From an uncultured Planctomycetota bacterium (lineage in GTDB: Bacteria; Planctomycetota; Planctomycetia; Isosphaerales; Isosphaeraceae), in assembly GCA_963845755.1 (NCBI GenBank), contig CAWJTV010000007.1, positions 11,925-75,924 on the forward strand: a stretch of 64,000 bases of DNA, written 5' to 3'. The first letter of the stretch is position 1. The number at the start of each line of letters is the position of its first letter. Position numbers and translations under genes: made by a program. Shown in pieces: positions 240 to 20,706 of the stretch. The notes beneath the pieces are model-generated. The model did not search any database. It was not told the origin of the DNA and was given only the letters and a program-made list of their open reading frames with translations.

Positions 240-313
<74 letters not shown>

Positions 314-423
314 TTTGACATAACATCCGCCGAAAGCAAGACTTAGCTTACCTGTCGAATCCGACAGAGCGGCCCCTTTCAAACCCAAGAAAGCCGGTAG
401 TCTACCGGATTTGGGGCCGTACC

Positions 424-1635
424 ATGCATGCACAAGCCTCCCGCGTTCCCTCCTACCGACTCCATAAACCGACGGGCCTGGCGGTCGTGACGATCGGCGG
501 TTGTGACGTCTATCTGGGCAAACACGACACTCCCGAGAGCCGGGCCGAGTATGATCGGCTCATCGCCGAATGGTTGGCGACTGGCCGACGTTCCATGACG
601 GCCAACGCGGCCTCCGGGGCCGATCTCACCATCAACGAATTGCACCTGGCGTACGTCCATCACGCCGACAGCTACTATGTCAAGAACGGCAAACCGACAA
701 CGGAGCCGGTGAACATCCGATTGGCTCTCCGGCCTCTCCGCCAACTTTACGGGCACACCCTGGCTCGAGAGTTCGGGCCTCTCCGGCTCAAGACCGTTCG
801 CAAGGCGATGATCGACTCTGGCCTCTGTCGGAGCGAGGTCAACAAACGGGTCCGACACGTCCTCCGGGCGTTCAAATGGGCCGTTGGTGAGGAGATGGTC
901 CCTCCATCCCTCCATCACGGCCTGAAAGCCGTCCCGGGCCTCCGCCGGGGCCGGGCCGACGTCCGGGAATCGGAGCCGGTCAAGCCGGTCCCTGATGCTT
1001 TCGTGGATGCAATCCAGCCTCACATCTCCCGCCAGATTTGGGCTATAGTCCAACTCCAACGCCTCTCCGGCATGCGGCCTGGGGAGGCTTGCATCATGCG
1101 GACGATCGACATCGACACGACCGGCCGTGTGTGGGTCTACACGCCGGAATCCCACAAGACTGAGCACCACGGCCGGGAGCGACGGATCTATCTCGGCCCC
1201 GCGGCCCAAGAGATTCTCCGGCCGTGGCTCCGAACCGAGTTGACGGCCTACCTGTTCTCTCCGGCCGAAGCGGAGGCCGAACGTCGGGCCGAACAGAGGG
1301 TAAGGCGGGAAACCCGGGTCCAACCGTCGCAAGTGAGTCGACGGAGGCGGAAGCCCAGCAAGGCTCCCGGCCAACGTTACACGGTTGATTCGTACCGGCG
1401 AGCGATCGAGTACGGCATCAAGTGGGCAAATCGGGAGTCAGGAAGGGATGAGACTCGCGCAATTCCGCACTGGCATCCGCACCAGCTCCGGCACAACGCC
1501 GCGACCCGCCTGCGTCGGGAGTTCGGCCTCGACGTCGCACGGGCGGTCCTCGGGCATAGTTCGCCGGCAGTGACGGAAGTCTACGCCGAGCTCGATCACG
1601 CCAAGGCCGCCGACGCCATGGCGAGGATCGGCTGA
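424..1635 (+). CDS. Tyrosine recombinase / phage-type integrase
   Basis: GMRPGE (R), HKT (K), HQLRH (HxxR), LGH, EVY (Y); 110 bp downstream of the tRNA. Confidence 0.95.
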   Translation: MHAQASRVPSYRLHKPTGLAVVTIGGCDVYLGKHDTPESRAEYDRLIAEWLATGRRSMTANAASGADLTINELHLAYVHHADSYYVKNGKPTTEPVNIRLALRPLRQLYGHTLAREFGPLRLKTVRKAMIDSGLCRSEVNKRVRHVLRAFKWAVGEEMVPPSLHHGLKAVPGLRRGRADVRESEPVKPVPDAFVDAIQPHISRQIWAIVQLQRLSGMRPGEACIMRTIDIDTTGRVWVYTPESHKTEHHGRERRIYLGPAAQEILRPWLRTELTAYLFSPAEAEAERRAEQRVRRETRVQPSQVSRRRRKPSKAPGQRYTVDSYRRAIEYGIKWANRESGRDETRAIPHWHPHQLRHNAATRLRREFGLDVARAVLGHSSPAVTEVYAELDHAKAADAMARIG

Positions 1636-2742: not shown

Positions 2743-2916
2743 TCGAGGGAATGATTGGTTGCTAGCCATCGTTAATCCTTCGGTTATTCCTCTCGGGATT
2801 AAAACCATACGTGGGACGGAACGGGGGGGAGCCCTGCGACCCCCCTTCCGGACCATGTATAATCTTCCATAGGAAGTAATTAGCATAAAGCCAGAAATTC
2901 CGGGGAGGGACTGTGC

Positions 2917-3897: not shown

Positions 3898-5651
3898 TCG
3901 CCGGGGACAGTGCCGGGGTTCGGGGTGGCGGCCCTGCATCAAGGACCGTGCGAACGACCGGCTGCGAGGCCGGGCCTCGGTGTGGGACCCGGCCGTCGGC
4001 CGCAAGCCCGCCTGGCCGGCGGCCGGTCGGTACGGGCGGGGGCGTCAATCGCCGAGCCATAGTGGCGGTCGAACCGGTCATCGCCTTCCCGTTACTCGGT
4101 GTCATGGTCGGAACTGGGCCGCGGGAGCGCAAGGAATAGTCTCGGTCGTATACGCCGGGGCCGTGCGATACATCCCAAGGACGACGACGAATTCCCGAAG
4201 CACGCGGTCGATAACGGAAGGAGGCGATCGGGCGAGTCGACGACCCCATGGACCACTGGCCACGCCATTACAACCCTGCTCCCGCCCGGCCTGTTGTGCC
4301 GCGCACGGTGGCCGAGGTTGGCGCCACCAACCCGGCGATCCGCTGTCTTCGGCCGACGGCCGCCGTGTACGCCCCGGCGCCTTGCCCTGCCTCGGCGAGG
4401 CTCGCGAGGCCGTCCTCCTGATATCGGTTGCCCGGGCCCGGGACTTGCTCAAGGCGCGCTCGGCCATGTCGCTCTTCTCGGCGGGCTGACCGGCCGCCTA
4501 GGCCGGGACCGGCGGGCGAATCGCCGATCGGGTTCTGTCAGGGCCGGGCCGGTCCGCCGGGCCCCGGCGCCCGGGGCCGCGAGGTACTCGACGTCATCTC
4601 AAGAACCGGCCGCCCTCGCCCGCCGACGCCGCACGTGATCCCGGGGACGGCGCCGCGTCCGCAACGGGGGCGTGAGTGCTCGCCGGCCATCTTCGGGAAT
4701 CGGGGGGCGACCGGCGCGATCGACCTGGTCGGCCGGCGGCGCCCGGAGGCCGCGAGGTTGGCCGCCCGACGGCACCGACCGGCCTCGGGTACCGAATGCG
4801 CACCGTCGTGCGTATTTCGCCGCTATGAACCGGTCTGCTTCCTGGCTGAGGACGACGCCGACGCCGCCCGCACGAACCCGACGCGATGCCGATCGAACCC
4901 GACGGCCATTGGCTGGCCAGCTCTCAGGGGCTTCGACCTCGATCGTCCGGGTCGCGGGGTCGGGTGGGCTGAGCCCACTCTATGAAGGTCGACCACCTTC
5001 TGCACCGGCGTGATCCGATCAGGCCTGGCCGCGGTCACGAACTCTAGCCGTGACCGGCGTCATTTCCCGGGGACGTCCGTCCTGCCGGCGGCGGAACAAG
5101 ATCGCATCTGAATCGGCGCCGCCCGTCGTTGGTCTTGCGACCAGCGCACCGTCTACGCCGTGCTCCCCGGCCGTCGAACGGGCCTGATCCCGGCCCACCT
5201 CCATGCCGTGGTTGCGACCGCACGCGTTAATCACGACGGCGGCGCAGGAGCGCGTGAGCATCCCCTTGGGGCCCCGGGGTTGGCCAGTATGCAGAACCCT
5301 CATTTTCAGCGCCGTGAATTGGCCCGTGAACTCGGGTGGCTCGGCGTAAGGCAGGACTCGTCCGACCACGCCCAGGACTTGGTCCCGACGGCCTCCGGCC
5401 CAGGGCATTGCACGCGAGCGGCGGCGCGATCATCGCGGCAGATATGAGGCCCCTGGCGCCAACACGATTCGCCGGCCGAATCCCAGGAGGACAGTCGGCT
5501 GGTTGACGGCAAATGGAACGACTGATCGCGCAATTCCAGATCGAATCTCCCCGGCGAGGCCAGGTCGATTAGGGCGCATCCGAGGATCTGGGTATGGTGG
5601 TTTGGTCGGCAATCGGATGCGAAACGTGGCAGCCGTGTAGGAGATCCTGAG

Positions 5652-6113
5652 TTGGCCGAATCTCGAGGCAAGGCGGCGGGAGGTCCTGGTGAAACTCCGA
5701 CTTTCAGAGACGAGGGCGAACGTGCGACGACCGCGCGGACCTGCTCGACCGGGGCCGCGTCATCTGGCCCGTCCTTCTACCAGATCGTCCTGGGCCGCGA
5801 CACGATCGTGACGTTGACCCAGGCCACCGCCCTGATCCCGCCACGGCGGCGCGGGCGGAAGGCCAGCGTATCGACGTTGTTCCGCTGGTCCACCTCGGGC
5901 TGCCGCGGGATCATCCTGCCCACGCTCCAGTGCGGCGGCACCCGCTGCACGTCGGTGGAGGCCCTCCAGTGGTTTTTCGAGATGCTCGGACAGGTCGGCC
6001 GGGGACGGGGCGCCCAGGCCGGTCCGGCGGGCATCCCGCTCCGGCGCAGCCCGGCCCAGCGCCGGCGGGCCGCCGAGGCGGCTGGCAGGCGCCTGGAGAA
6101 GATGGGCGCCTGA
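5652..6113 (+). CDS. DUF1580-type HTH protein (excisionase/regulator-like); true start probably further downstream
   Basis: TLTQATALIP..RGRKASVSTLFRWSTSGCRGIILPTLQCGGTRCTSVEALQWF. Confidence 0.75.
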   Translation: MAESRGKAAGGPGETPTFRDEGERATTARTCSTGAASSGPSFYQIVLGRDTIVTLTQATALIPPRRRGRKASVSTLFRWSTSGCRGIILPTLQCGGTRCTSVEALQWFFEMLGQVGRGRGAQAGPAGIPLRRSPAQRRRAAEAAGRRLEKMGA

Positions 6114-6350
6114 TCGGCGTGCCCATTCAACGCGGCGGCCCGGCCGCGGCCCTTCCTCGGGTCCGAGGGAAAGGAGCGGCGAGCCGCCGGCACGCGACGG
6201 GCCGGGTTGCCGGGGCGGATCGTCGCCGGGTCGTGTCAAGACAGAGATGGCTCCCTAAAGTGAGGGAACCAACCATGATTCGGAAGCCGGAGGCCGGCAC
6301 CGGACATCGTGTCCGGGACCCACGCGGGGACGGCGGCCGCTGGCGGCCGT

Positions 6351-6556
6351 CCCCATCGGCGGCGCGATCGGGACGTGGTTTCTTATTACCCGGCGCGCCG
6401 CAGATGTCCCAGCCCTCTCGTGTCCGGACATCGTGTCCGGTCACCTGGAGATGCCAGGGGCGCGGCCGGGCGATATCGGGGCGATGAGTTCGGGTCGGTC
6501 GTCATCAGGGGGGCGGAGCCGGGTGGGTCACCTAACGTCGCGGAACCGGTCGTGTC
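6351..6556 (+). repeat. Degenerate ~205-bp direct repeat, copy 1 (upstream of RecQ)
   Basis: Aligns with 9120-9324, e.g. ggacatcgtgtccggtca..ggagatgccagggg..cgcggccgggcg..atcggg..ttcgggtc.gtcgt..atcag.gggcggagcc..ctaac..gaacc.gtcgtgtc. Confidence 0.85.
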
Positions 6557-6881
6557 TCCGCGGTCTGGAAGGTCGCCGCTGGTCCACGGCGGCGGCTCAC
6601 CGCTTCCCGTTACGCTATCTCGGGACGATGGCCGGTCCCGCAAAGTCGGCTTGAGTAGATCCGGGTGCTGCCGGATTCCGGGCCGGACGTCAACGCGGGA
6701 GCCGCGTCACCGCTGGCCGCGTTTTGTCCCAGGCACGCCTTCGGCGACAATGAGCGTCCGACCAGTCGAGTGGACCGCTGCCGAGATCTGGGTTGCCCCG
6801 GCAGCCTCCGCCGACGTCTGATGCTCGCCTACGATCCGGGCCAATTGCGGCCCACACCAAAGCGCACGAAAGGTCTATCCC

Positions 6882-8954
6882 TTGCCAACGCTCGACCATG
6901 CTCGCCGGACGCTCAAGGACGTGTTCGGCCACAGCAGCTTCCTCCCCGGCCAGGACCTGGTGATTGCCCGCATTCTCAGTGGGACCTCGACTGTTGCGAT
7001 CTTCCCCACTGCCGGCGGTAAGAGTCTCTGCTACCAGCTTCCGGCCCTCCTGCTCGACGGCCTGACCGTGGTCGTCTCGCCCCTGATCGCCCTGATGCAG
7101 GACCAGGTCGATCAGCTCGTCCGAAAGGGCATCCCGGCCGCCCGGCTCGACTCCAGCCTCGACACTCAAGAGGCCGCCAAGGTCTACGCTGGCCTCGACG
7201 CAGGCCGCTTCAAGCTCCTCTACCTGTCCCCCGAACGCTTTGCCAGCGAGCGGATGCGACAGACTCTGGCCCGGCATTCGATCGCGTCGCTGGCGATCGA
7301 CGAATCGCACTGTATCAGCGAGTGGGGCGATAACTTCCGACCTGAGTACCTCAAACTGGCGCGACTGGCGGAGCAACTCAACGTCGGCTGCGTGCTGGCG
7401 CTGACGGCGACCGCCACGCCGAAGGTCGCCGGGGACATCGCCCAGGCCTTCCGGATCGCACCGGAGAACATCGTCACAACCGGTTTTCATCGGCCGAACC
7501 TGGAGCTTCACGCCGTCCCCTGCCGCCCCGATGAGCGTCTGGGGCTGTTGCGACAGTGGCTCGAGTCCCGTCCGCCTGGCCCGGCGATCGTCTACGTGTC
7601 GCTCCAACATACGGCCGAGGAGGTGGCCAAGGCCCTGGCCGAACTGGGCCACGACGCCGTCGCCTATCACGCCGGTATGCCGGCTGAGGAACGGCGCCGG
7701 ATCCAGGATGGCTTCATGATCGCGCAGTCTCAGATCATTGTCGCGACGATCGCCTTCGGCATGGGCATCGACAAGGCGAATATCCGCGCGATCTACCACT
7801 ACAACCTTCCCAAGAGCCTGGAAGACTATGCGCAGGGGATCGGCCGTGCCGGTCGCGACGGCGAGCCCGCCACATGCGTGCTTTTCGCCTGCTCCGAGGA
7901 TGTGCTGGCTCTCGAGAACTTTGCCTACGGTGACACGCCGACGCCGGAGGTGGTCGCGGACCTGCTCGCCGACGTGCTGAGTCGCGGTCCCGAGTTCGAC
8001 GTATCTGTTCACGACCTGGCCCAGACGCACGACGTTCGCATTCCCGTCGTGAAGACCCTGCTGACCTACCTCGAGCTGGAGCAAGTCCTGACGGCGACCG
8101 CGTCGTTCTGCAAGGAGTACATATTCCAGCCGCGGCGATCGGTCGAGGCGATCCTGGGATGCCTCGACGCGGGGCGGGCCGCGTTCCTTCACGGGCTGTT
8201 CCGTCGGGCTCGCCTGGGCACTACCTGGTGGACGCTGGATGTGGCGTCGGCCGTGCAGGCCTTGCGTGTGCCCCGCGACCGGATTCTCGAAGCGTTGACC
8301 GCCCTGGAGGTCCAGGGCGAGCTGGTCCTCAAGTTCAGCGGGGCGAGGCAGGCATATCGCCTGCTCCAACCTGCCCCGGACCTCCCGCGGCTCGGCTCGC
8401 TGCTGGCCGAACGGCTGTTGCAACGCGAAGGGCGGGAGGTCGCTCGAGTGCGGGCTATGCTCGAGTTCGCCCAGGAGAGGGGCTGCTTGACGAGGCGGTT
8501 GCTGAACCACTTCGGCGAGGCGATGGACGCCGATTGCGGCCATTGCGGTCCTTGCCTCGACGAGCCGCCGAGACCCGTGCCGGCTCCGACGGTCCGGCAA
8601 CTCGGTCTCGCCGAGTGGGACCTCGTGGCCAGATTGCGGTCCGAGGGGCACGCGGCGCTGGCGAGCCCGCGGCAGCTCGCGCGTTTCTTGTGCGGGCTGA
8701 CCTCGCCGGCCACGACGCGCGCCAAGCTGACGAAGGACCGCCGATTCGGCAAGCTGGCCGACGTCCCGTTCCGGGATGTCCTCAGGTTTGTCGAGGGGTG
8801 CGGCTCCGTCTCCCCGGCCCGAGCTCCCGAGGGTCACGAGACGCTGCGACGGGTAGCCGACCGCAAGCCGACGGCATCCGCGAGCGCGTTCGGGGGCACG
8901 CCCAGGCCGGACTCGCGTGTACCGGTCCTGACCAGGCGTCGCGCTGGTCGATGA
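6882..8954 (+). CDS. recQ: RecQ-family ATP-dependent DNA helicase
   Basis: PTAGGKSLCYQLP, VVSPLIALMQDQV, DESHCISEWGDNFRPEY, LTATAT, ATIAFGMGIDK, GRAGRDG, C-terminal CGHCGPC Zn site. Confidence 0.93.
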   Translation: MPTLDHARRTLKDVFGHSSFLPGQDLVIARILSGTSTVAIFPTAGGKSLCYQLPALLLDGLTVVVSPLIALMQDQVDQLVRKGIPAARLDSSLDTQEAAKVYAGLDAGRFKLLYLSPERFASERMRQTLARHSIASLAIDESHCISEWGDNFRPEYLKLARLAEQLNVGCVLALTATATPKVAGDIAQAFRIAPENIVTTGFHRPNLELHAVPCRPDERLGLLRQWLESRPPGPAIVYVSLQHTAEEVAKALAELGHDAVAYHAGMPAEERRRIQDGFMIAQSQIIVATIAFGMGIDKANIRAIYHYNLPKSLEDYAQGIGRAGRDGEPATCVLFACSEDVLALENFAYGDTPTPEVVADLLADVLSRGPEFDVSVHDLAQTHDVRIPVVKTLLTYLELEQVLTATASFCKEYIFQPRRSVEAILGCLDAGRAAFLHGLFRRARLGTTWWTLDVASAVQALRVPRDRILEALTALEVQGELVLKFSGARQAYRLLQPAPDLPRLGSLLAERLLQREGREVARVRAMLEFAQERGCLTRRLLNHFGEAMDADCGHCGPCLDEPPRPVPAPTVRQLGLAEWDLVARLRSEGHAALASPRQLARFLCGLTSPATTRAKLTKDRRFGKLADVPFRDVLRFVEGCGSVSPARAPEGHETLRRVADRKPTASASAFGGTPRPDSRVPVLTRRRAGR

Positions 8955-9119
8955 TCTGTTCCGACAAACCGAGGGGCTCGTCGCCGAGCCCCGCGCGGTA
9001 TTCTGGCCCGAAAGCCGGCAAGGCCGACTTGCATCCTCGGAGAACGATCTGCGTTCGGCCGCCCCCGGGTAGGTGGGGTTGGTCATCGAAGCGATCCTCG
9101 CGTGGGTCCATCGGGGCCG

Positions 9120-9324
9120 CCCATCCGGCGCGCGATCCGGGCGTGGTCACTGCTTACCCAGCCCACCCCCTTTGTCCCATCCCTTTCCCATCTGGACATC
9201 GTGTCCGGTCATGAGGAGATGCCAGGGGGTCGCGGCCGGGCGCCATCGGGACGACGATTCGGGTCTGTCGTATCAGAGGGGCGGAGCCGCGTAAGTTTTC
9301 TAACAGTACAGAACCAGTCGTGTC
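9120..9324 (+). repeat. Degenerate ~205-bp direct repeat, copy 2 (downstream of RecQ)
   Basis: See copy 1 at 6351-6556. Confidence 0.85.
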
Positions 9325-9425
9325 GCCGCAGTGTGCGAACTCGCCAGATGGCCACCGGGACTTCTCTGCCGAGGGATCGTTCAAAAGCATCCTGCTCGCG
9401 GTCATGGACCCGGATCGGCCGAGAA

Positions 9426-10832
9426 TCACGGCTGCCGGGTCACCCGGTCCCAGAATTCCTCCCAGCGGCCGGGAGTCCGCGTGAGCTCGCGGAGGATCAA
9501 GATGGCTCTGGCCGCCGTCACGCCGATCTTGAACTTCGGATGTTTGAGCCGGTCCCCGAGGACCGCGTCCGCCAGGCCGGCCAGGATGCCGCCGTTGGCG
9601 AACATCAGCCAGGCGGCCGGCTCCTGATAATCCAGCCGGCCGGCCGAATGCTGCTGGGTCAGGAAATCGAGGGCCTCCGCGATCGATGCGCGGCCTTCAT
9701 CCGGCAGGGGATCACGCAGCCAGGCTTGGAGGTCGGCCACGATTGACGTGATGCCCCCGGCCGATCGGAGCCGCCCTCGGGCCATTTCCAGCCAACCGGC
9801 TCGCTCCCGCCTTCGCCATGTCCGTTCTCGTGAATCGTCTCCCTCTCCCAGCCCGGCGCGCTGCACCTGCTCGAAGTAGGCTTGGGCGGCCCGCGCGATC
9901 GTATCGATCACCCGGTCGGGGTCGATGAACATCCTGATTTCCCATTCCCGGCCGAAGTCATCCGTCCGTTCGGACACGTTCCTCTGCCGCGTCAGCCAGT
10001 TGTCCAGGAACTCGACGCCCCAGGGCTGACCGCCCGAGACCCCGATGAGCCGGGCCGCCTTGTGCTGCTGCTTGTGCAGTGCGCGGTCAAGCTCGTCATT
10101 CATACGGCGGGCGAATCGGCCGCGATCGGGCTGGGGCGGATCCGCCGGCGATCCCCACTCGAACAAATCGGTCACGTAGAGCGCATATTGCCGGCGGCCA
10201 TCAACGTCGTAGAACGAGACCGAGCCGATCGCCGCCGTCGCGCGGGTCGGCCGGGACGAGATCTCGACCTCGTCCAGGCCCACAACCAGCGTCACGGTGG
10301 GATTCTCGAAGTCCGGGAGGTGGTAGATCGTCTGGTCGGCCTGGAACTCGGCGAGCGCGGCGACCGCCTCGGCGACGTGGGCCACGAGCCCGCGCGAGAA
10401 GGTCCGGCCGTGGTTCTCCGCCATGTCCGCCTGGACGTGCGCCGACCCGAATTCGGCGAATTTGGATGCGATCATCCGCGCGAATCGCGGCGTCGCGCTC
10501 AACACGATCCCCGCCCGGTCCTCGAGCGGGCAGAAAGTTCGACCCGCCGGCCGAAGACTGATACACATGCCGCTCCACCTGGGCCGCCCCGAAGGCCGTC
10601 TCGTAAAACTTGGAGACCTTGCCTTTGGTCGTGTACTTGCGCCCTCTCGCACCAGCGGCTGGCCGTCAGCGTCGAACAGCTTCATCGCCTCGGCCGTCAT
10701 GAGGACCCCGGCCTGGTTCACCGCCTGTTGCACGGCTTCCTCGCATTCGGACAGCGTGCGGTAGGGACCGAGATCCAGTTCGATCTCGAATGTCCGCCGG
10801 GTTCCCTCTGCCTTCGTCACGCGAGCCTGCAT
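9426..10832 (-). CDS. ISKra4-like transposase derivative with degenerate catalytic motifs
   Basis: EEAVQQAVNQAG..FDADG, ERHVYQSSAGG (alternate frame 10201-10578), TFCPLEDRA..SATPRFA..SKFA; DDE positions appear altered (VGLDE, GVSGG, NGGILAG). Confidence 0.65.
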   Translation of the reverse strand: MQARVTKAEGTRRTFEIELDLGPYRTLSECEEAVQQAVNQAGVLMTAEAMKLFDADGQPLVREGASTRPKARSPSFTRRPSGRPRWSGMCISLRPAGRTFCPLEDRAGIVLSATPRFARMIASKFAEFGSAHVQADMAENHGRTFSRGLVAHVAEAVAALAEFQADQTIYHLPDFENPTVTLVVGLDEVEISSRPTRATAAIGSVSFYDVDGRRQYALYVTDLFEWGSPADPPQPDRGRFARRMNDELDRALHKQQHKAARLIGVSGGQPWGVEFLDNWLTRQRNVSERTDDFGREWEIRMFIDPDRVIDTIARAAQAYFEQVQRAGLGEGDDSRERTWRRRERAGWLEMARGRLRSAGGITSIVADLQAWLRDPLPDEGRASIAEALDFLTQQHSAGRLDYQEPAAWLMFANGGILAGLADAVLGDRLKHPKFKIGVTAARAILILRELTRTPGRWEEFWDRVTRQP

Positions 10833-11089
10833 GGTTGGTTCCCCGCGTTACATCAAATCGTGACCACTGCGCTTGTACTTAACGGCTATCTTGGCTATAT
10901 TACGTAGGATCTGAGCGACGGCCAATCGAAAGTAGAACCCGCCGCCGATGAGGTCGGTCGCAGCAACCCTGCCATACCCGACCCATGATCCTCCACGATT
11001 GAGAGGCACCCATGTCCCCGTCGATCGACGACCGCGAAGGGCGCAACGAGTCCCGCCCAATTTCGAAAAACAAGCAGCACCCTCGGCGG

Positions 11090-11324
11090 GCCGCGACCTT
11101 CCCCGGAGTCGAGTATGTCGAGTTGGTCGCCGAGTCGGGAGCGGGACGGCCAGCTCGTCCCGATCCACATCACGCCGGACGGCCTGACCCTGGACGGCCA
11201 CCTGCGAGTCCGGGCGGCCGGACAAGTGGGCTCGGACGAGATCCGGGTCTGCGTCCGGGACGACCTGGCGGACCAGGCTGCACCACGCCGTGGCCAGGAC
11301 GACCGCCCGGGCGACCCAAGCTGA
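11090..11324 (+). pseudogene. Partial duplicate of the ParB N-terminal domain
   Basis: DGQLVPIHITPDGLTLDGHLRVRAAGQVGSDEIRVCVRDDLADQ vs EGQREAIQVTPDGTIIDGHQRVRAADQLGWSEIRVWVRDDLAGDQ in the next gene. Confidence 0.75.
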
Positions 11325-11394
11325 CGTGCACGAAGACAGCCGCCATGACATTTCCGTCGTTGGCCCAAACTTCCCAACCAATTGAGAGGTACTG

Positions 11395-12432
11395 ATGGCT
11401 CAGTCGAAACGCGACCACAAGACACACCGACACGCTTCAGACGATGGCGCCGCCGCAAGCCAGGCGAAGGCCGACACGCCGGCCGAGGCCCAGCCCGATG
11501 GTGGGCCGCCGGCAGACGGCGGACAGGAATCCCGGCGCATCGAGCAACGGCCCATCGCCGGGCTCAACAATCATCCGTGGCAGGTCAAGCTCTACCACAG
11601 TCTGGAAGGCGCCGACTTCGAGGGTCTGGTTAACAGCTTTCGGCGTGAGGGCCAGCGCGAGGCGATCCAGGTTACGCCCGATGGCACCATCATCGACGGG
11701 CATCAACGTGTGCGTGCAGCCGACCAACTGGGGTGGTCCGAAATCCGCGTCTGGGTGCGCGACGACCTGGCAGGCGACCAGGACGCGATCGACCGCGCGC
11801 ACGTCCTGGCGAACAGGGACCGCCGGCAGCTCGATACGATCGACCGGGTGCGTCTGGCGCTTCGCCTGGAGGAGATCGAGCGGGGCCGAAAGGTGGCCAG
11901 CCTTTCGGATTCCGAACAGGAGGAGTTCCGCGAACGAATTGGCAAGTCAGTCGGGCTCTCGGGCCGCCACGTCCAGCGGTACCTGAATGTACTGGATCTC
12001 CCGATGGTCTTACAGCGAGCGGTTTCCAAGGGTCGTCTCGGGCTGGTGATGGCCGACAGGATCTCTCGCCTCAGATGGCGCGTGCAGCAAAAGATCGCCG
12101 ACGAGATCGAGGCCGGGGGTGACCCGAAGAAGGTCGTCGCCAAACACTCGTCATTCAGGGGTCGCGGGTCGCATCCAACCACGAAGTATCGGCAGATGAT
12201 GTTGGCATTGGCCCAAGGTCTTGATGCGGCGGAGGGACGCTACCGCGAGCTCTACCCCGTCAACGGACTCGAGGGAGATCTCGCTCTCATGGACCGACTG
12301 GGCCGTTTCCGCGAAGAGTTCGCCGAGGAGCGTCGCCGGAGCGAGGCTGAGTTCGAACAAGCCTTGCAAGAGGACGAGGCGCTTTTCGCCCAGCACGAAA
12401 AGCTGACTGAATCCTTATCAGGACTCGCCTGA
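11395..12432 (+). CDS. ParB/Srx-domain protein with HTH
   Basis: GQREAIQV..IIDGHQRVRAA..ANRDRRQL; HTH IGKSVGLSGRHVQRYL; GAGAGG RBS. Confidence 0.88.
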   Translation: MAQSKRDHKTHRHASDDGAAASQAKADTPAEAQPDGGPPADGGQESRRIEQRPIAGLNNHPWQVKLYHSLEGADFEGLVNSFRREGQREAIQVTPDGTIIDGHQRVRAADQLGWSEIRVWVRDDLAGDQDAIDRAHVLANRDRRQLDTIDRVRLALRLEEIERGRKVASLSDSEQEEFRERIGKSVGLSGRHVQRYLNVLDLPMVLQRAVSKGRLGLVMADRISRLRWRVQQKIADEIEAGGDPKKVVAKHSSFRGRGSHPTTKYRQMMLALAQGLDAAEGRYRELYPVNGLEGDLALMDRLGRFREEFAEERRRSEAEFEQALQEDEALFAQHEKLTESLSGLA

Positions 12433-12433
12433 C

Positions 12434-14032
12434 GTGGACACCGCCACGATGACCATCCGGATTCGCGGCGACGGCCTCATCGCCGCGATCTCATCGCCGC
12501 CGCCCGAGGTCCTCGCCGAGCTGACGGTTAACCGACGGCGATTCCGGCCGGACGGCCGGGGTGGTCTGCGTCCGGAGGCCGAGCCGGAGCCTCTGTTCTA
12601 TCGCGCGGCTGACGGATCTTTGATCCTCCCGCCCGGGCTGGTGCACCCGGTCGCGACCGTCGGACGCCGTGCCGGCTACCGGGTGGAGATCGAGGGGCCG
12701 GCGGGACCCGTGTCCGGGATGCCGACTCCCGAGTTGCCCGCCGACCTGGACGACGCTCGGCGCCCGCTCGCTACCTCCCTGACCACCGCCCGGGGCGGCG
12801 TCATCCCTGTGGACTGCGACCGCGACCGGCTGGACGCGATCGAGTTGATGCCCCGCATCTTCCCGGGGCAATCGATCGCCATCGTCGCAAAGACCCGCCG
12901 CGAGGCCAGGACTCTATCCAGGCGCCTCGGCAAGAGATTGAAGGAGCCGGTCGGTTTCTCGACGAGAGGCGTTAACACCCTCGGGGATGCGCATGCGAGT
13001 GGGGACCGAGCCGACCATGGACCTGTCGTGCGCGGCGGTCGTCGTCTTCACTGACGCGCGCCAGGTCCTGCATCGGCGCGTGCTGCGCCAACTGTCGATG
13101 ATCTGGAAGCGACGGGCCTACGGGTTCCTGGGCCCGGAGGCCGACCTGAGTCGTCGGGAGTGGCTGGTCGTCGAAGCATCACTCGGGCCCGTCGTCGGCC
13201 GGCTGGGCGTGCCGGACGACCATCTGGTCGAGATCCAGGCCGGCTTTGCGGACTGGCCCGGAGGCGAGCAGCCGGACCGACCCCTGGGCCTGGAGTGGAA
13301 ACGGGCTTCGATCTGGCACAGCGCCGGACGCAACCTGGCGATTGCCCGGCTGGCAAGGGCCCTGGCCGGTGGCGATGCCGAGATCCCATGGGATTACGGC
13401 TTGTTCGACTTCCTCGATCCGCAACTCCGCGAAGGCCGGCGCGTGGCCATCCTGGTCGAGTCCACCGAGCACGCCGATGTCCTCGCGCGGCTGTTGCCGG
13501 GTTGGTGTGTCCTGCGGGCCGAGCCATCGGGCTCATCGGGCACGCATCGGGCTGAGGGGCCTACCCGTCACAGCTCAGACATGCCGCCGCAGGCCCCCAA
13601 TCGGTCGATCATTACCTGGCTCGCCGCCTGGCGGCGGGGCGGGATCCAGACCGATGTCGTGATCCGGGCCGACGGGACGCCGTGGCCGCTCGATCTACCG
13701 CTCTGGCCGGCGAGCCACGGCCAGGGCGTCGGGCGGCCCGTCTTGCTTGTTGACCTCGCCGACGGCCAGGACCGGACCGCGGGGAGGCAAGGTACGCCCG
13801 AATGCACTATTACCGGGACCGGGGCTGGCTCGTGGCGGGTCGGCCGCCGCTCTCCAGCCACAAGTGGTCCCCTAATGTTCGACGAGCTTCGTTGTGTGGG
13901 GGTCGCCAGACGAAGACCCAGGCCGTCCCGCCGAGCCCGGACATCGTGTCCGGCACCGGCACGGGGAGTGGGCCGTTTATGGGCCGCCACGATGAGGATT
14001 GTCCGGGCGGATCGGATACCCACGAGACCTGA
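12434..14032 (+). CDS. Degenerate SF2-helicase-like protein (frameshifts near 12990 and 13800)
   Basis: Starts 1 nt after the ParB stop; SIAIVAKTRREA, VVFTDA, RNLAIARLA, VAILVESTEHA, VVIRADG, VLLVDLAD..YYRDRGW; no Walker A or DExH. Confidence 0.5.
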
Positions 14033-14479
14033 TTCGGGGATGATTTTTGCCTAATATTCGGAGACCACATATGTCTCAGGTCGGCGTGAAATCGACCTGG
14101 TTCGCCCGATCCGGGGGCATACTCCGATGCGGCCGGGCTCGACGCCTCTCCGGTGCTGCTGGTCCGGAGCGAAACGCTGCGATGGCGGGGGCTCGCGTAG
14201 GTCGGGTCGGTTCGCTGGCGACATCAGACCGTCGCTCGCGTCCGGGGTGGGCCGGCGATGCCGTCGTTGGTGCGGGGCCTGCCGATGCGCCTGGGCAGGC
14301 CGCAGGTGGGACGATCGATCTGGATGGTTCGTAACCGGGGCCGTTGGCGTTCAGCCGCGACCGGGCCGGCCGGATCGCGAGGGTTGGAACGGGAAGCTGA
14401 CCGTGTGGCGCACAGGCCGGGCGATCGCGTGGATCGGCCCAGTGCTCGCCCGGTAGACCAGATAAGAAAGGAAAGCCGC

Positions 14480-15820
14480 ATGTATAACAGCCCGCGTCGA
14501 CGGGGGGGCTCTAACCGACCCGCCGACGCTCGTGCCCGCCGGGTGCCTGCCGACTACCACGAGGGGTCGTGCCGGGACTACCTGCGCCGACACGAGCGCG
14601 AGTCCGCCGATGCCGCCCGAGCGACAGGCGCGAGAGCGAACCGAGTTCGCCGGTTGTCTGTTCCGCAGGGCGGCCGATTCTCGCAATCTCAGGTGTGCGA
14701 TCGATTATCTGGCGCGGAGGGCGGCAGCTCCCCGGGCCCGAACGGCCTGACTCTCGACGAGCTGGACGGCTCGGAACGCTGGGGGCTCGCCAGGGCGCTC
14801 GGCGAGATCATACGGACCGGCCGGTACCGACCGGGGCCGCATCGCGAGGTGCGGATCCCCAAGGGACCGGGCCGAGGCCTGCGGACGCTCCGTATCCGCA
14901 ACGTCGAGGATCGGGTCGTCGAGAGGGCGATCGTCCAGGTCGTCCAGCCGTTCCTCGATCCGACGTTCGCGGCGGCCAGCTTCGGCTACCGGCCTGGTCG
15001 GGGTCGCGAGCACGCCCTGGCTCATGCCGAGGCGATGGCCGACGCGAAGGGCTCGTGGGTCTGGATCTTCGACGACGTCAAGGACGCCTTCGATCACGTC
15101 CCTCTGGGGCGGTTGATCGACGTCGTCCGCAAGCGGCTCGTCGCCGACGAGATCGTCGAGCTGACCCGGATCGTGACCGACGGGGAAGCGAACAGGGGGA
15201 TACGGCAGGGCAGCAGCCTGTCGCCGCTCCTGCTGAACCTCTACCTGGACCACCTACTCGACCGACCCTGGGCGAAACAACACCCGGCCCAGCCGTTGAT
15301 CCGGGTGGCGGACGACCTGCTCGTCATCGCACGGGACCGGTTCGAGGCGGAGGGCGCGCACGAAAACCTGAGATCCCAACTGCGATCTGCCGGCCTGACA
15401 CTCAAGGCGACACCCGGGACGGCCGTCCGCGATCTCCCACGCGGAGAGACCGGCGACTGGCTGGGGTTCCGGCTCCGAAACGGGCTGGGTGGCCTGGAGA
15501 TCCGACCGACCGACCGATGTTGGGGCAAGTTGGGCGAGGCCCTGGGGTTGGCCCACACGAAGCCCGCCGCACCGCTCCGTGCCTTCGAGACGATCGAGGG
15601 CTGGACCGAGCAGCTCGGCCCGTGCCGGCCCGACGTGGACCTCACCGACCTGTACGCGAGGATCGCCTCCGTGGCCCGCGAGCACGCCTTCGACGAGATT
15701 CCGACCCGACAAACCCTGGAGGGACACCTCCTCATGGGGTATCGCCGTTGGGAATCGCTGAGACGGTGCGCCCGACCCACCATGGAGCGAGAACCGGCGG
15801 CTCCGCCCGCCCACGTTTGA
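14480..15820 (+). CDS. Group II intron-like reverse transcriptase (VADD), no intron RNA or endonuclease domain detected
   Basis: AAGGA RBS before ATG 14480; RT0 (ADSRNLRCAIDYLA in alternate frame, PGPNG), IPKG..GLRTL.I..VEDRVV, SFGYRPGR, DDVKDAFD, GIRQGSSLSPLLLNLYL, IRVADD, WLGF. Confidence 0.92.
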   Translation: MYNSPRRRGGSNRPADARARRVPADYHEGSCRDYLRRHERESADAARATGARANRVRRLSVPQGGRFSQSQVCDRLSGAEGGSSPGPNGLTLDELDGSERWGLARALGEIIRTGRYRPGPHREVRIPKGPGRGLRTLRIRNVEDRVVERAIVQVVQPFLDPTFAAASFGYRPGRGREHALAHAEAMADAKGSWVWIFDDVKDAFDHVPLGRLIDVVRKRLVADEIVELTRIVTDGEANRGIRQGSSLSPLLLNLYLDHLLDRPWAKQHPAQPLIRVADDLLVIARDRFEAEGAHENLRSQLRSAGLTLKATPGTAVRDLPRGETGDWLGFRLRNGLGGLEIRPTDRCWGKLGEALGLAHTKPAAPLRAFETIEGWTEQLGPCRPDVDLTDLYARIASVAREHAFDEIPTRQTLEGHLLMGYRRWESLRRCARPTMEREPAAPPAHV

Positions 15821-16043
15821 AGACCGCAGCCAGCGGTCGAACCGGCAAGGCGTCGAATCGGCGCCCTGCCAGGATTGCTACTTCGATTCGGATTCCCGAA
15901 ACAGAGATGGGGAGCGTCCCGGTTCCGGATCTCGGCCTGTGCGAGCCCGGGGCCGGTTTTCTCCCGATCTACGAGAAAGTGACGATTGTCGATGACGAAC
16001 ACCGCCGAGCCGGTCGCGGAGCCCCTCGAGGGTCTGTGCGCTC

Positions 16044-16388
16044 GTGAGTTCCTTCGTCACCAAGGTTGCAGGTTACCGGTTTCAGAACGGGAACCTCGCC
16101 ACCGCCGGAGAGCCGGTCCGGTTCGTCCGCGAGCCGCAAAATGCCGCGGACCCCAATGCAATCGCGATTCACAACAATTCCGGCCAGCGGATCGGTTACC
16201 TCTTCCGCGAGATCGCCGCTCGGTACGCGGTGCCGCTGGACCGGGGATTCGTTCGCCTCGTCGGCCGGTTGGCCGCCCCGGGCGAGCCGAATTACGATCC
16301 GGCCCTGGCCGAGATCAACCCGCAGGTCTATCTTTGGATCTATGCGGACCAGGCCTACCTCGATGCATCGCCAGGTCAAACCGCCTGA
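16044..16388 (+). CDS. HIRAN-domain protein
   Basis: TKVAGYRF...VRFVREPQNAADPNAIAIH...RIGYL.RE.A. Confidence 0.85.
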   Translation: MSSFVTKVAGYRFQNGNLATAGEPVRFVREPQNAADPNAIAIHNNSGQRIGYLFREIAARYAVPLDRGFVRLVGRLAAPGEPNYDPALAEINPQVYLWIYADQAYLDASPGQTA

Positions 16389-17761
16389 GGGACCGTGGGA
16401 ACAGGGAGCACCGTGGGGACGGACGTTGGTAACGACAGCCGCCGGCTTCTTCGCGGCAGGCCCAGCCGGGTCGCACGGGCCATGCCGGTCGAGGCGGGAT
16501 CAGCCGAGCCAGGCCCGGCCACGCGTGTTGACCCGGCCGTCGGCGAGTTCTCATCCTGTTCGGAGTCGGACGGAGTAGTCATCGCATGCTGTCGCACTGG
16601 CTTCGGGTCGCGGCGGGCAGGATTCACGGGTTCCAACCGTGGAAGGCCTCCCGCCGCGCCAGCAATTCCCCGAAACGGCTCCGTCAGGGTCGCGATAGGC
16701 TTGCGGGGCCACCGGTTCGGCGGCGACGCCGTTGGCCGACACCCTGGACTCGCCAGATTGCCGGCGGCTCTGCGGTCAGGGTGATGCCCCATGCGAGCCG
16801 TCGAGGTCGGCGTCGGACCGGCCTTCATAGGGACCCGGCCTGCAGCCGCGACCTCAATTCCGGGGAGTCCCGGATTCCACATCGGTCGAGGGCCAACCGC
16901 CGGCGCCGCGGCCTACGTGCGTGGTGTCGCAGCCCGATCCCGGTTTCCTCTCTCCCGGAGCGATCCTTCGGCTGCATGGCCCGGTGGTCGCAAAGCAGCG
17001 TCGTCAACGGGTTGGCCGCGGGACGGTGCCCTACTCGAATATGCGGGGCCCCCCACGCGATCTAACGAGTCATGATGGAGATGTGCGAAGCGCTCGAGCA
17101 CCGTGGCGGTAAATCAACGGCCAACTCGGCGCGACCACAGCCTGTTGCCCCGTCGGTAACCCAGCTGCACGCGCACCGACTCGGCGGCGGAGGGGCACCG
17201 ACGTGATTCGACGGGGCCACGGAATGTGCGATCACAAGGCGAAACGGCCGGAGATTCGATGGCCCGGGAATGTGACGAGCGGAAACCGCCAGGAATGCGG
17301 GCACGCAGGCCGCCCGACCGGAGCGTGAGGCAGGTCGGGGAGAAGCGTCGAGTGATCCTCGATTCGGCCGCTCCGGATTCGCCAGCGATATCGGCCGTCC
17401 CACACTCGGTTTTCGACGTCAACGGACACAAGCAAGGGCTCCTGTGGGGCGCCGGGCAGGTGGCATCCGTCCAATGTGCATCGCCGGCCGATCAGGTCGA
17501 GTCGATCGACGGAGCGGGGCGCCAAGACCCCTGCGCCCACGCGAGGTCTCGCTGAAACTCGAATCCGGAGAGATCCAGGCCCTGGTCGCCGCCCTCCTCT
17601 GCTACCCGGGGTCGGGCGTATCTCGAACCGGACCTTGAGTGGCCGTCGCCCATGCCACCGGACGATCGTCCCGGAAGGGGACTAACGGGTACCGAGCTTG
17701 GGGTTGATCCTCGATCACGCAGCCCGCCCGGACGCATCCGGGGATCGGTCGCCCCTCATTC

Positions 17762-18655
17762 TTAAGGCCTACCGGCTTCCGCCTGGCGAGCATCGGGCCA
17801 TGCTCCGACCGGGGTCGGCAGCCATCGGCTCTGGTCACCTTCGACAAGCTCGGCGAAGGCCTGCCGCGCCTTCTCGACAACCGGACGGAACTCCATCAAC
17901 ACCACCGTTGAATCAGGATCCCGGTAGGCGACCTCGTATGCTCGCACGGAGCTCGCATACTCACGCAGAGCCTTGGGGCGATACGCCATGAGGACCTCGC
18001 GATACTCTGGCTGCACCCGGTCGAACTGCGCCGCGACCCAGTAACGGAAGAACGGACGCAGGGCGTTGCTCGGGTCTCGGAGTGTGCCGAGTACCGCGTT
18101 TGCCCATGTCCCGCCGAACAAACGGTTGGCCCGGCTGCACTCGAGAGCGAAGTGGGCTCCCATCGTATCTCGATGGATTCTTCGCTGTGTGATGGCCTCT
18201 CCCTGCTCGTCCTGCTGGTATTGGTCGAGGGCCGCGGGAGAGAGCAGTTTGTTGGGATACGGAGATCCGGCGTTGGCGACGCGTATGAATCCCGCATTGA
18301 TGTACCCTTCGAAGTCAAGGCCGCGGTCCAGGATGGCCCTCGCGACCTTGACCCAGATCGGCGCGTGGAACCGCCCCTTACAGTCGTAGCCGCCGTCCCA
18401 TCGGCGGAGCTCATAAGCACCATAGTGATCGGGTCGCCGCGTGATGGCTTCGGTGGCTGCCCTCCGGCAGCCTACATACGTGTGGCGCACGAGGTGCGTC
18501 AGGAATCTCGTCAGGTCGTAGCAGTCCGGGTCGTGCAGGCCGGACGGAAGCACCTTCTTCGGGAACAGGTCCACAGTCGGGGTGATTCCCGAGATGCCGA
18601 GGTAGGCCGTGCGGGCCATGAGCCGGTTCGTCACGTCGTCGTCTGGCAAGGGCAT
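17762..18655 (-). CDS. Hypothetical protein (RWDGG motif), coupled to the Rep-like gene
   Basis: 297-aa ORF of normal composition whose start overlaps the end of 18631-19653. Confidence 0.7.
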   Translation of the reverse strand: MPLPDDDVTNRLMARTAYLGISGITPTVDLFPKKVLPSGLHDPDCYDLTRFLTHLVRHTYVGCRRAATEAITRRPDHYGAYELRRWDGGYDCKGRFHAPIWVKVARAILDRGLDFEGYINAGFIRVANAGSPYPNKLLSPAALDQYQQDEQGEAITQRRIHRDTMGAHFALECSRANRLFGGTWANAVLGTLRDPSNALRPFFRYWVAAQFDRVQPEYREVLMAYRPKALREYASSVRAYEVAYRDPDSTVVLMEFRPVVEKARQAFAELVEGDQSRWLPTPVGAWPDARQAEAGRP

Positions 18656-19653
18656 TGAGCTCGCTCTTCGTTAATGGGTTCGTCGGCCCGGGGCTTGACG
18701 CCGCGGAAGTTGCCGAATGCCGCCCAGAGCCGCAAGCCCTCGCGCGCCGTGAGCGAGTTGATGACCTGCTCGGGGTTGCCGCGTAGGAGCCAGGGCGGGT
18801 ATCGGCAGAGTCGCGCCACGGCGCGGGCCAGGGCCAGGCGGTCGGGCTGGCTGTGCTTGCCGACCCTGACCCGAATGTTCCGATATTGGGGCGCGACGAA
18901 CAAGTGGAGGTGGTCGGCATCCACGGCCAGGAGCTGCCGGATCGCGACGACCCAGCCGCCCGGATCACGTCCGCGGGCGTCTGTCGAGACGGCGATCGTC
19001 TCGTACCCGCCGAGCGATGAATACTTCTGCAGCTCGTGCTGCCGAAAGAACGGCCCGAACGGGATGCCGCGCGGCGGCTTGCGGACGCGGTCGGCCAGGA
19101 ACGCGGTGAGGAGCCCGGGATCCGGGCCTGGAATCCGATGGGTTCGACTGATCTCGACCAGGCTGCACGCCGGCATCTTGGGGCGACGGCTCGTACTCGC
19201 ATCGGGCGGGAAGAAGACTCTGTCCGCGAGGTTCCAGATCGTCATCGCGGCCCGTCCCCAACAGAACGGGCAAAGCGAGCTGAGGCCGCACGAGCTGGAC
19301 GGCCGCGCCGCGCCGAACGGCGGGCTGCAATTGCGGAGCTGCGAGATCCTTCGCTCCCTCCGGTCCAGGGCTCGGTCGTCGGCGCCGGGCTCCCAGCCGG
19401 CGTCGACTAGTTCGGCGACCCGTCGCCGCCAGAGGTCGATCAGGTGAACGACCTGGGGATGACGCCGCTGGAGGTTGCCAACGCGGCCAAACAGCGGATA
19501 GAGCACGGCGTCGATGCCGACGTTGGAGAGGAGCGAGAAGCGGGGCTGGGCGATCTTGAAAACGATGTCGCCGGGACCGGCGCGTCCGGACCTGTCGCCT
19601 GCCACGCACGCCGGATCAGGTTCAGGATTGCACCGCATGCGCTGTAGCGTCAC
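18631..19653 (-). CDS. Zn-finger protein, divergent Rep_1-like (paralogue of 2917-3897)
   Basis: AVLYPLFG, LRNCSP, SCGLSSLCPFCWGR, WVVAIRQ, RLCRYP, AREGLRLWAAFGNFR. Confidence 0.6.
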   Translation of the reverse strand: MTLQRMRCNPEPDPACVAGDRSGRAGPGDIVFKIAQPRFSLLSNVGIDAVLYPLFGRVGNLQRRHPQVVHLIDLWRRRVAELVDAGWEPGADDRALDRRERRISQLRNCSPPFGAARPSSSCGLSSLCPFCWGRAAMTIWNLADRVFFPPDASTSRRPKMPACSLVEISRTHRIPGPDPGLLTAFLADRVRKPPRGIPFGPFFRQHELQKYSSLGGYETIAVSTDARGRDPGGWVVAIRQLLAVDADHLHLFVAPQYRNIRVRVGKHSQPDRLALARAVARLCRYPPWLLRGNPEQVINSLTAREGLRLWAAFGNFRGVKPRADEPINEERAQCPCQTTT

Positions 19654-20561
19654 CGGCGAAGTCGCCGGCCCTCCTCAGGCGTTCCAGCGAGGCCGATGGG
19701 CGATCCTCGCGTACTGGTATTAAATATTCCTTTAGTACCATCTCTTCTTCGCTGCGCTCAGAGAGAACTAACAATCGACAAACGGGGCCGAGTACGGCCC
19801 CCCGTTTGTCTGTCATTGGCTTTTCTTTCTTCTTGAAGAAACCCTACCAACAGCAATCCCTGACGTCGAGCAACGATAGCGTCGCCGACAAGATCATGCA
19901 CACCCTCGCACCTTCGGACAATCGACTATCTCGTGCCGGATTCGGGGCAAGATGGGCCGATCCCTCGGCTCGCACTGGTGCTTCCGGCGCGAATCGAGGC
20001 CGAATGGCAGGCCAAGGCAGGTCGGCCACGTCCTTGGTCGATACGGCGGTCGTAGTCGAGTCGATGACGCTGCTCAATGCCTCGTCTGATCGAGATCGCC
20101 GCGACGAACGATGGGTTGGACCGGGTCAACAGGAGGATCGGCGATCTATCACCGCTCGATCTCGAGGGACTCGCGGTCTATTCGACGCCGGATCCCGTCG
20201 ATTGACGCGGCCTCGACGTTGATCGGGACGACATCGCTGCCTCGCCCGAGCTGGAGCCTGGCGATCGGGTCGGCAGGTTCTCGGCGGCGCTGGCGCTTCG
20301 GCCTCGCCCCGGCGTAGCCCGCTCGGCGCACTGCGCCGCGGGCGGTGGCCGGCGCGTGCACGGGAAAGACCTACCGCTCGATCTTCGGCCTAGACACCAC
20401 GGGCGGGTACGATGACGGGCAGGACGAAGATCAGAGTAGGACTCGAACCTCGCCGACCGATACCTACCACGATGGACGCCGGATAGAGATCGGTTGGCGG
20501 TGGCAGGAGGCTCCTGGACGATCACCGGACCCGTGGTCTGATCCCTCTTTACCGATGCTTC

Positions 20562-20706
20562 GAGACAGGAATGGCGACCTCACGCTAATCGAGCGGCTAC
20601 TCGCCGCCGGACATGATGTCCGCAGCGTCTTCCAGAGACAGGAATGGCGACCTCACGTTAATCGAGCGGCTACTCGCCGCCGGACATGATGTCCGCAGCG
20701 TCTTCC
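20562..20706 (+). repeat. Tandem duplication, period 73 bp, 1 mismatch
   Basis: gagacaggaatggcgacctcacg(c/t)taatcgagcggctactcgccgccggacatgatgtccgcagcgtcttcc at 20562 and 20635. Confidence 0.95.

Follow-up and report, generated by a model that had tools for sequence, protein, structure and literature searches.

To our knowledge, the intron-less group II-like reverse transcriptases (RTs) are the least understood RTs of bacteria, with a known role only for G2L4 and the CRISPR-linked enzymes. The repair carried out by G2L4 is microhomology-mediated end joining. In published reports, the G2L4 RT acts in double-strand break repair (PMC11761039; 10.1101/2022.03.14.484287), has a YIDD active site and is reported only in Proteobacteria (PMC4244168). 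The G2L5 RTs (Simon and Zimmerly 2008) are described as group II-like enzymes from Planctomycetes (PMC2602772, PMC4244168), in which DD is changed to DN and the protein has an N-terminal extension of ~500 amino acids (aa) (PMC2602772). Four unnamed G2L clades are mentioned in PMC8632793. The subject of this work is a free-standing RT gene in a 64,000-nucleotide (nt) stretch of DNA from an uncultured Planctomycetota bacterium of the Isosphaeraceae (contig CAWJTV010000007.1, positions 11,925 to 75,924; hereafter the window). An initial annotation of the window had described the gene as a stand-alone group II-like RT and proposed that it forms, with the HIRAN protein that follows it, a DNA synthesis, repair or defence unit that fits no named class. 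The present analysis places the RT in a family whose conserved partner is a different, upstream gene, here called X; the pairing is close to obligate, and X-RT is a Planctomycetota-specific module of islands integrated at tRNA or tmRNA genes.

The neighbourhood of the RT was compared over 75 family loci (the window, L001-L022 and L050-L101), and hidden Markov models (HMMs) were built from the recurrent neighbours. X is a protein of ~490 aa. It is encoded upstream of the RT on the same strand in 36 of the 41 loci that have at least 1500 bp of upstream sequence. The exceptions are L006, L013, L051, L100 and L017, the last of which has X downstream and inverted. The linkage also appears from the side of X: the gene is present in 8 of the 401 sampled genomes of the phylum, and at all eight places where X occurs in 7 other genomes the RT is directly downstream on the same strand. 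Across 18 loci, the pairwise identities of X correlate with those of the RT, with a Mantel r of 0.86 and no value as high in 2000 permutations. This fits co-inheritance of X and RT; descent of the islands from a common ancestor would have the same effect. The mean identity of X is 25% and that of the RT is 38%, so X evolves faster.

X has no match in Pfam or PHROG, and its likely nature comes from a predicted structure. An AlphaFold model computed from 20 sequences (pLDDT 80.9, pTM 0.71) gave as its top Foldseek matches archaeal XPB (E 3.8e-13, probability 1.0), the XPB/Ssl2 subunit of TFIIH, T4 UvsW and RadD. The Foldseek TM values are only 0.3-0.4, which is expected for a two-lobed protein. 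The neighbours of X in a protein atlas are phage SSL2/ResIII helicases of ~500 aa (ResIII/Helicase_C proteins), and a profile of X recovers 4708 cluster representatives at E<=0.001 and 1097 at E<=1e-30. The model contains the two RecA-like lobes and the N-terminal domain of the XPB/Ssl2-type fold, but the Walker A and DExH motifs of an ATPase are missing. Walker A was found in none of the 20 aligned X sequences and in none of the 150 best representatives, and at the position of motif II, LPDA or variable residues stand in place of DExH. As modelled, X is a helicase fold without ATPase motifs.

The RT itself retains its catalytic aspartates. RVT_1 (E 2.6e-23, residues 126-311) is the sole Pfam domain of the protein, and no HNH, GIIM or Intron_maturas2 domain was found in it by Pfam, as the initial annotation had stated for HNH. 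The ATG start codon is preceded by a AAGGAAAG stretch, and the gene is single-copy in the source genome. In an alignment of 29 family members, D199 (RT3) and D278 (RT5) are invariant and D279 is nearly so; the earlier reading of a VADD motif with all three aspartates kept is therefore borne out (Table 1). The YxDD position across the family is V/T/Y/F/W-A/V/I-DD, the tyrosine of YADD is not conserved, and YIDD occurs in one of the 29 sequences (P0118). Since the residue at the Y position varies across the family, VADD is a trait of the lineage and not a defect of the window copy. The family also has a conserved, family-specific N-terminal extension of ~60-80 aa ahead of RT0. Within residues 1-60 of the RT, H27, G29, L35 and R37 are near-invariant and belong to a motif of the form H-x-G ... 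DFLRRHE.

None of the models of named RT classes is reached at its cut-off. The best NCBIfam model, TIGR04416, scores 148.4 bits against a cut-off of 300 and covers model positions 15-269 of 353. The retron model NF038233 (St85) scores 23.2 bits against 235 and the Drt2 model 19.6 bits against 390. The generic RT model of PADLOC matches the window RT at 1.3e-46, while the best UG/DRT matches, RT_UG21 (1.4e-14) and Drt9 (2e-14), are both partial. A PADLOC match to Cas1_IIIb spans positions 56-255 of 617, which is only the RT portion of the model. The family profile aligns best with the group II intron RT GsI-IIC (PDB 6ar1) at 170 bits (E 5.7e-49), in an alignment that runs from RT0 past RT7 to the first part of the thumb. 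Against the G2L4 RT structures it reaches 65 bits (E 4.9e-17), and against Drt2 an E-value of 2.7e-5.

At the gathering level, Rfam found only the tRNA at 240-313 and the true group II intron at 33855-33943 in the whole window. At E<=10 over 13000-18000 there is no intron RNA near the RT, only two matches at chance level. No intron RNA was found by Rfam in 15 family loci (142.5 kb); the same scan recovered intron RNAs in 7 of 17 non-family RT loci, which served as a positive control. A direct-repeat scan of 1-30000 gave no CRISPR-like array and no template or variable repeat (TR/VR) beside the RT. It likewise gave no template/variable repeat pair of a diversity-generating retroelement (DGR) around 13-18 kb, with no dedicated DGR model run. 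The statements of the initial annotation that the gene lacks domain V/VI (in contrast to the true intron), cas1, a CRISPR array, retron features and a DGR template, and that no named class could be assigned, thus all hold; the scan for intron domains that it had proposed came back empty at the RT and in the 15 family loci.

The RT is therefore not a mobile group II intron enzyme by its RNA, by its lack of an HNH/En domain or by its TIGR04416 score. It does fall within G2L in the broad sense, being nearest to intron RTs in sequence and without intron RNA. The YIDD of G2L4 is absent, as are the DN motif and the ~500-aa N-terminal extension of G2L5, and the model and repeat scans gave no assignment to the retron, UG/DRT/Abi, CRISPR-associated or DGR enzymes. 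These results support a free-standing, intron-less, group II intron-like RT.

In a phylogenetic tree of 63 rows, 33 form a single clade with an SH-aLRT support of 99 and a stem of 0.9; its members are 30 family rows, the window, L102 and L028. Three Rfam-confirmed intron RTs kept in the tree fall outside the clade. The tree excludes rows that matched fewer than 230 profile positions, among them the intron RT of the window and four further Rfam-confirmed intron RTs. The tree was midpoint-rooted and built without named G2L, CRISPR-RT or retron references, so it shows a distinct clade and not a relation to the published G2L clades (Toro et al. 2019; myRT classes G2L, G2Lb and G2Lc).

A protein search returned 223 relatives at E<=0.001 among 8000 candidates scored, and those with names are from the Isosphaeraceae or Pirellulales. 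Pattern scans of genomes gave 22 clear family loci of 49 returned, in which all named ones are Planctomycetota; scans of metagenomes gave 52 clear family loci of 80 kept. Full-length relatives that retain the catalytic residues number in the hundreds. A C-terminal RNase H is fused to the RT in 13 of 120 listed relatives, with an RNase H match of 7.1e-36 in L014. Four longer forms (782-920 aa) have other C-terminal tails, including one that contains DUF3102, and none of these four is a fusion of X to the RT. Judged by sequence, the RT descends from group II intron RTs and is a distinct intron-less lineage found so far only in Planctomycetota. Cultured carriers are Anatilimnocola sp. NA78 (L017), Singulisphaera acidiphila DSM 18658 (L013, where the RT has no X) and Aquisphaera giovannonii (P0278), whose island may be L280. 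Outside the X-linked family, tandem same-strand pairs of RT open reading frames (ORFs) were seen in metagenome loci L110, L112, L113, L114, L116, L118 and L121.

It is conceivable that the RT gene is what is left of a mobile group II intron, an ORF in decay that has no function of its own. The closest relatives outside the family are intron RTs, the genome is rich in introns and the window copy is frameshifted. These points are outweighed by the hundreds of full-length catalytic relatives, the conserved non-intron partner and gene order, the lack of intron RNA in all 15 family loci with the positive controls found, and the grouping in one clade on a long stem. Decay of an intron is therefore a very improbable explanation. 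The true group II intron of the window lies at 31984-33943 and consists of an ORF with RVT_1, Intron_maturas2 and HNH domains (AI2M-like) followed by domain V/VI. The genome holds at least five near-identical copies of it (99.7-99.8%) and a total of 39 RVT_1 matches.

The gene downstream of the RT is a HIRAN gene, as had been proposed (Table 1), and its start is backed by a homologue of 114 aa. The homologues at L003, L177, L178 and L179 are also above the Pfam cut-off. The spacer between RT and HIRAN is 223 nt. HIRAN follows the RT in only 2 of the 59 family loci with at least 600 bp of downstream sequence, namely the window and L003. An improved HMM built from eight HIRAN sequences still found it in 2 of the 75 family loci, and a Pfam scan of 147 further neighbour ORFs at 17 loci gave no HIRAN match. 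Over 1898 nt that take in the spacer, the window and L003 form one continuous alignment of 77% identity; because of this alignment the two are taken as one inherited block.

Looking from the HIRAN side gives the same result. This HIRAN type has seven close homologues in the protein collection and occurs in 3 of 401 genomes of the phylum and 5 of 121 genomes of the taxonomic family, the source genome counted. Four of the six HIRAN loci (L142, L177, L178 and L179) have neither RT nor X in their flanks, yet carry other genes of the same islands. L142 is a truncated second HIRAN copy in the source genome, beside the small gene F11 and an integrase. It belongs to a copy, at 91% identity, of the window segment 16199-17266 on contig C5 of the same genome (G000; L142 9224-10289), where the F11 gene and the tyrosine integrase are part of a second island without X or RT. 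L178 has a DUF1580 gene, and L179 (G455) has PrimPol (PF09250), AAA_25, HIRAN, F14 and F13 in a row at 3277-10155. HIRAN is an optional gene or incidental cargo of this island family and not a partner of the RT.

Two hairpins lie just 3' of the RT stop and fold with a z of -2.05. The second has a 14-bp stem with three covarying pairs among five sequences and a U-rich tail in L003 and L001; because of the covarying stem and the tail it looks like a terminator. It stands between the RT and HIRAN genes. This bears on the proposal that RT and HIRAN form a host DNA repair or damage-tolerance unit comparable to G2L4, in which HIRAN would capture 3'-OH ends and the RT would extend or join them. In the window and in L003 the two genes are neighbours on one strand with conserved spacer DNA, the G2L4 RT has a repair role, and the position of HIRAN after PrimPol and AAA_25 in L179 makes a role beside a DNA-synthesising enzyme plausible. 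However, the two linked loci are a single inherited block, most HIRAN loci lack the RT and a terminator-like hairpin separates the genes. G2L4 is also matched far worse than the intron RTs, YIDD is absent, and the genes are on an accessory island that is missing from a same-genus genome. HIRAN is thus unlinked in the homologues, the outcome that the initial annotation had itself named as speaking against its RT-HIRAN unit, and the steady partner is X. The linkage counts largely refute that unit, and a repair function of this kind is improbable.

The window copy of the module appears to be damaged. Compared with four relatives, the RT gene carries an additional base near 14629 and lacks one near 14714, and this compensated pair scrambles RT0 in the assembled protein. 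In the window DNA the conserved RT0 peptide is read in another frame, and protein residues ~51-79 match no homologue. The RT0-RT7 described in the initial annotation is hence not confirmed, as RT0 is disrupted in the 446-aa frame. The nucleotides between the two sites are still well conserved, which means that the frame change is either recent or an assembly error. In X, the homology is read in frame 2 as far as 12970, continues in frame 3 from 12972 to 13781 and goes back to frame 2 near 13802 for the tail. X is likewise split at some other loci, L003 and L022 among them, while L001 and L014 are examples of intact loci.

Two sources of evidence bear on whether these indels are real. Public soil metagenome reads from one study (0.10 share of words) match parts of 14183-14397 and 15539-15912 exactly; the read contigs do not cover 14600-14740, 12971 or 13785 and neither confirm nor refute the frameshifts. 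Copies of the group II intron in the same assembly differ by no gaps in three of four comparisons and by four gap openings in the other. The gap-free copies suggest, without proving, that the indels are real. As assembled, the X-RT module of this genome looks inactivated, with X frameshifted twice and RT0 of the RT scrambled. The earlier picture of an RT with a HIRAN partner is replaced by that of a probably damaged RT copy with an incidental HIRAN neighbour.

Table 1. Coordinates of the features discussed in the text, given as positions in the window.
Feature	Position	Strand	Details
tRNA-Arg (ACG)	240..313	+	Left island end
Tyrosine integrase	424..1635	+	Pfam Phage_integrase 7.1e-17
15-nt inverted repeat CGGACATCGTGTCCG	6301-6315, 6425-6439, 9193-9207, 13938-13952, 20608-20622, 20681-20695		Six sites; copy at 6301-6315 on +
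RecQ-like superfamily 2 (SF2) helicase	6882..8954	+	DEAD, Helicase_C, RecQ_Zn_bind
ParB-like protein	11395..12432	+	Stop abuts start of X; TIGR00180 5.2e-12, phrog_4715 1.1e-21
X, predicted P-loop-less XPB/SSL2-like helicase-fold protein	12434..13860	+	End approximate; broken in this copy
15-nt repeat copy between X and RT	13938..13952	+	~540 nt before RT start
Group II intron-like RT	14480..15820	+	446 aa; ORF scan, Pfam and family alignment
RT segment out of frame	14629..14714	+	Relative to four relatives; +1 base near 14629, -1 base near 14714
VADD at YxDD position of RT	15305..15316	+	GTG GCG GAC GAC
Two hairpins 3' of RT stop	15822..15838 and 15841..15873	+
Stand-alone HIRAN protein	16044..16388	+	114 aa; PF08797 56.1 bits, cut-off 24.7
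Duplicated segment	16199..17266		3' half of HIRAN and ~880 nt without convincing ORF

The module is located on an integrated island. A same-genus genome matches window positions 1-316 at 82% identity, and 317-20000 has no match there except a weak integrase-like similarity elsewhere. Because the synteny stops at ~316, the left island end is placed at the tRNA-Arg gene. The same-genus genome gave no right end, and 1-30000 contains no direct repeat of the tRNA 3' end. An integrase of the same family as that of the window is present within 6 kb of the RT in 17 of the 75 loci and a ParB-like gene near it in 8. Of 15 loci scanned, 4 have a tRNA or tmRNA in or beside them: a tRNA adjoins the integrase in L005 and L020 and follows the RT in L009, and L008 has a tmRNA. 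L013, L017 and L089 have serine recombinases.

The recurrent small genes F8, F11, F13 and F14 and the DUF1580 gene form a common backbone of these islands. The order in L014 is ParB, X, RT-RNase H, DUF5131, F14 and F13, and in L279 it is ParB, PrimPol-like, F14 and F13. In L013 the RT is beside a DnaB_C/AAA_25 helicase and a serine recombinase. Single neighbours have other domains, such as nSTAND1 in L084 and an Eco57I methylase in L006. Family A DNA polymerase domains also occur on islands with the same backbone, upstream of the RT locus in L006 (1296-2153) and upstream of F14-F13 in L287 (3585-5048). Further along the window, a 246-aa ORF at 40205-40945 has only the C-terminal IMS_C domain of a Y-family polymerase and may be truncated or split.

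The islands share a short, island-specific repeat. Counting both strands, the 15-nt repeat matches the window eight times, at six sites, where chance would give 0.45 matches. In the 14.27-Mb genome there are eight hits with at most one mismatch, six of them in a 14-kb stretch of the window, and they are mostly intergenic. The repeat recurs in L001, L003 (twice), L011, L022 and L065. Its placement ahead of the RT is kept in L003 (~530 nt before the RT) and in L001 (~610 nt). The repeat may be a parS-like or operator site, perhaps for the ParB-like protein of the island. At 20562-20706 a 72-nt unit is repeated in tandem at 99% identity, and each copy holds a perfectly palindromic variant of the 15-nt repeat.

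No conserved non-coding RNA was found beside the RT by Rfam at E<=10, by alignment of the X-RT spacer or by blastn and tblastx among the spacers of 10 loci. Only the 15-nt repeat is conserved in the X-RT spacer, even where the RTs are ~70% identical.

We tentatively favour, at somewhat less than even confidence, a role of this intron-less Planctomycetota RT lineage and its partner X as an island module that serves the replication or establishment of the island. X would act as an ATPase-dead scaffold that binds nucleic acid and positions the RT on its template, and the RT would copy RNA into DNA. Where RNase H is fused to the RT, it would remove the RNA, and HIRAN, where present, would hold the free 3'-OH end of the product. 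The DNA would then be used for the island's own replication or for its establishment after excision. This is suggested by the related islands that have PrimPol and a helicase-type ATPase in the same slot.

Several points weigh against a replication or establishment role. An ATPase-dead helicase would be an odd replication factor, and X-RT binding, template, product and biological role are all inferred and not observed. The X-RT spacers gave no template RNA in spacer comparison or Rfam. X is patchy in the phylum, which would suit cargo or defence no less than a replication module that can be replaced. The slot argument is based on a few loci. Of the 18 F14-marked island places examined in the taxonomic family, L179 among them, X or RT is present in three, a PrimPol-like gene in three, a PolA-like gene in one and nothing recognised upstream in 11. 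Mutual exclusivity of X-RT and PrimPol is not established, because 11 of the 18 places have no recognised gene and most upstream genes have no family match. The recombinases near the module are of two kinds and stand in changing order, as would also be expected for a mobile cassette. That the frameshifts in the window are real is also unproven.

The same observations could be explained if X-RT were a two-gene cassette for defence against phages or plasmids that is carried by the islands as cargo. The dead helicase would then sense a foreign nucleic acid or protein and license the RT, in some cases with RNase H, and, as DRT and retron systems do, the DNA product would block either the invader or the cell. 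The patchy distribution of X fits this proposal, as do the compact cassette with a fixed gene order in variable surroundings, the variable C-terminal additions of the RT (none, RNase H or the DUF3102-containing tail) and the faster evolution of X. In the literature, domesticated group II-like RTs are held to be a likely source of defence systems, and 25% of known G2L RTs are near defence genes (PMC8632793). The weak hits to DRT models in PADLOC, UG21 and Drt9 included, and the single neighbours with nSTAND1 and an Eco57I methylase point in the same direction. However, beyond the generic RT models, the RT, X and HIRAN have no strong PADLOC match, no conserved non-coding RNA is beside the RT, and the neighbours mostly belong to one conserved island backbone and not to mixed defence islands. 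X is also absent from all 79 RT loci on viral contigs. Defence is considered nearly as probable as an island function. Replication is rated slightly above it because of the PrimPol slot (L179 and L279 compared with L014), the DnaB-type neighbour in L013 and the likeness of X to phage replication and recombination helicases.

If replication or establishment of the island is the role, a bolder form of it can be considered. The islands may be integrative retro-replicons, in which X-RT, in many members with the fused RNase H, would copy all or part of the island from RNA into DNA once it has been excised or transcribed, and the recombinase would insert this DNA at tRNA genes. The RT would then have replaced the PrimPol-helicase module of the sister islands in the same slot. 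Counterparts would be the tyrosine-recombinase retroelements of eukaryotes (DIRS-like) and the retroplasmids of fungal mitochondria. This specific form is doubtful.

These results define a large, unannotated two-gene module of an RT and a helicase fold without ATPase motifs, with recurring RNase H fusions and a defined island backbone. In the literature searched, which took in neither subscription papers nor the supplementary files of Toro et al. 2019, no account was found of Planctomycetes RTs that have an XPB-like partner or are fused to RNase H. A role in island replication would make this the first integrative element of bacteria to depend on an RT, and a role in defence would make it a new RT-based system outside the UG/Abi and retron lineages. 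The cultured carriers make the module testable.

Compared with known systems, the RT is closest to the RTs of group II introns, with GsI-IIC as its best profile match. The family differs from these in having no intron RNA, HNH or DNA-binding/endonuclease (D/En) domain, and in having an N-terminal extension, the partner X, RNase H fusions and an unconserved tyrosine in YADD. Like the G2L4 RT of Pseudomonas aeruginosa, it is free-standing, without intron RNA and altered at YADD. G2L4 is a lone chromosomal gene with YIDD, whereas the window RT has VADD, at a position that is variable in the family, and is island-borne with X. In contrast to the G2L5 RTs of Planctomycetes, ADD is kept, the extension is short, and X is a separate gene with no X-RT fusion found among the longer relatives. 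The family fits G2L in the broad sense as neither G2L4 nor G2L5, being set apart from those two by its motif and its extension.

The combination of an RT and an accessory protein in a compact cassette on mobile DNA is shared with the DRT/UG/Abi systems and the retrons, but here the matches to their models are weak and partial and no conserved non-coding RNA was found. X is predicted to have the same two-lobed fold with an N-terminal beta-rich domain as XPB/Ssl2 and the phage SSL2/UvsW SF2 helicases, and differs from them in having no Walker A or DExH motif. Lastly, the PrimPol-helicase modules occupy the same slot between ParB and F14-F13, and upstream of HIRAN (L179, L279). The polymerase fold is different and X has no ATPase motifs, so the equivalence of X-RT with these modules is positional only and is seen at few loci.

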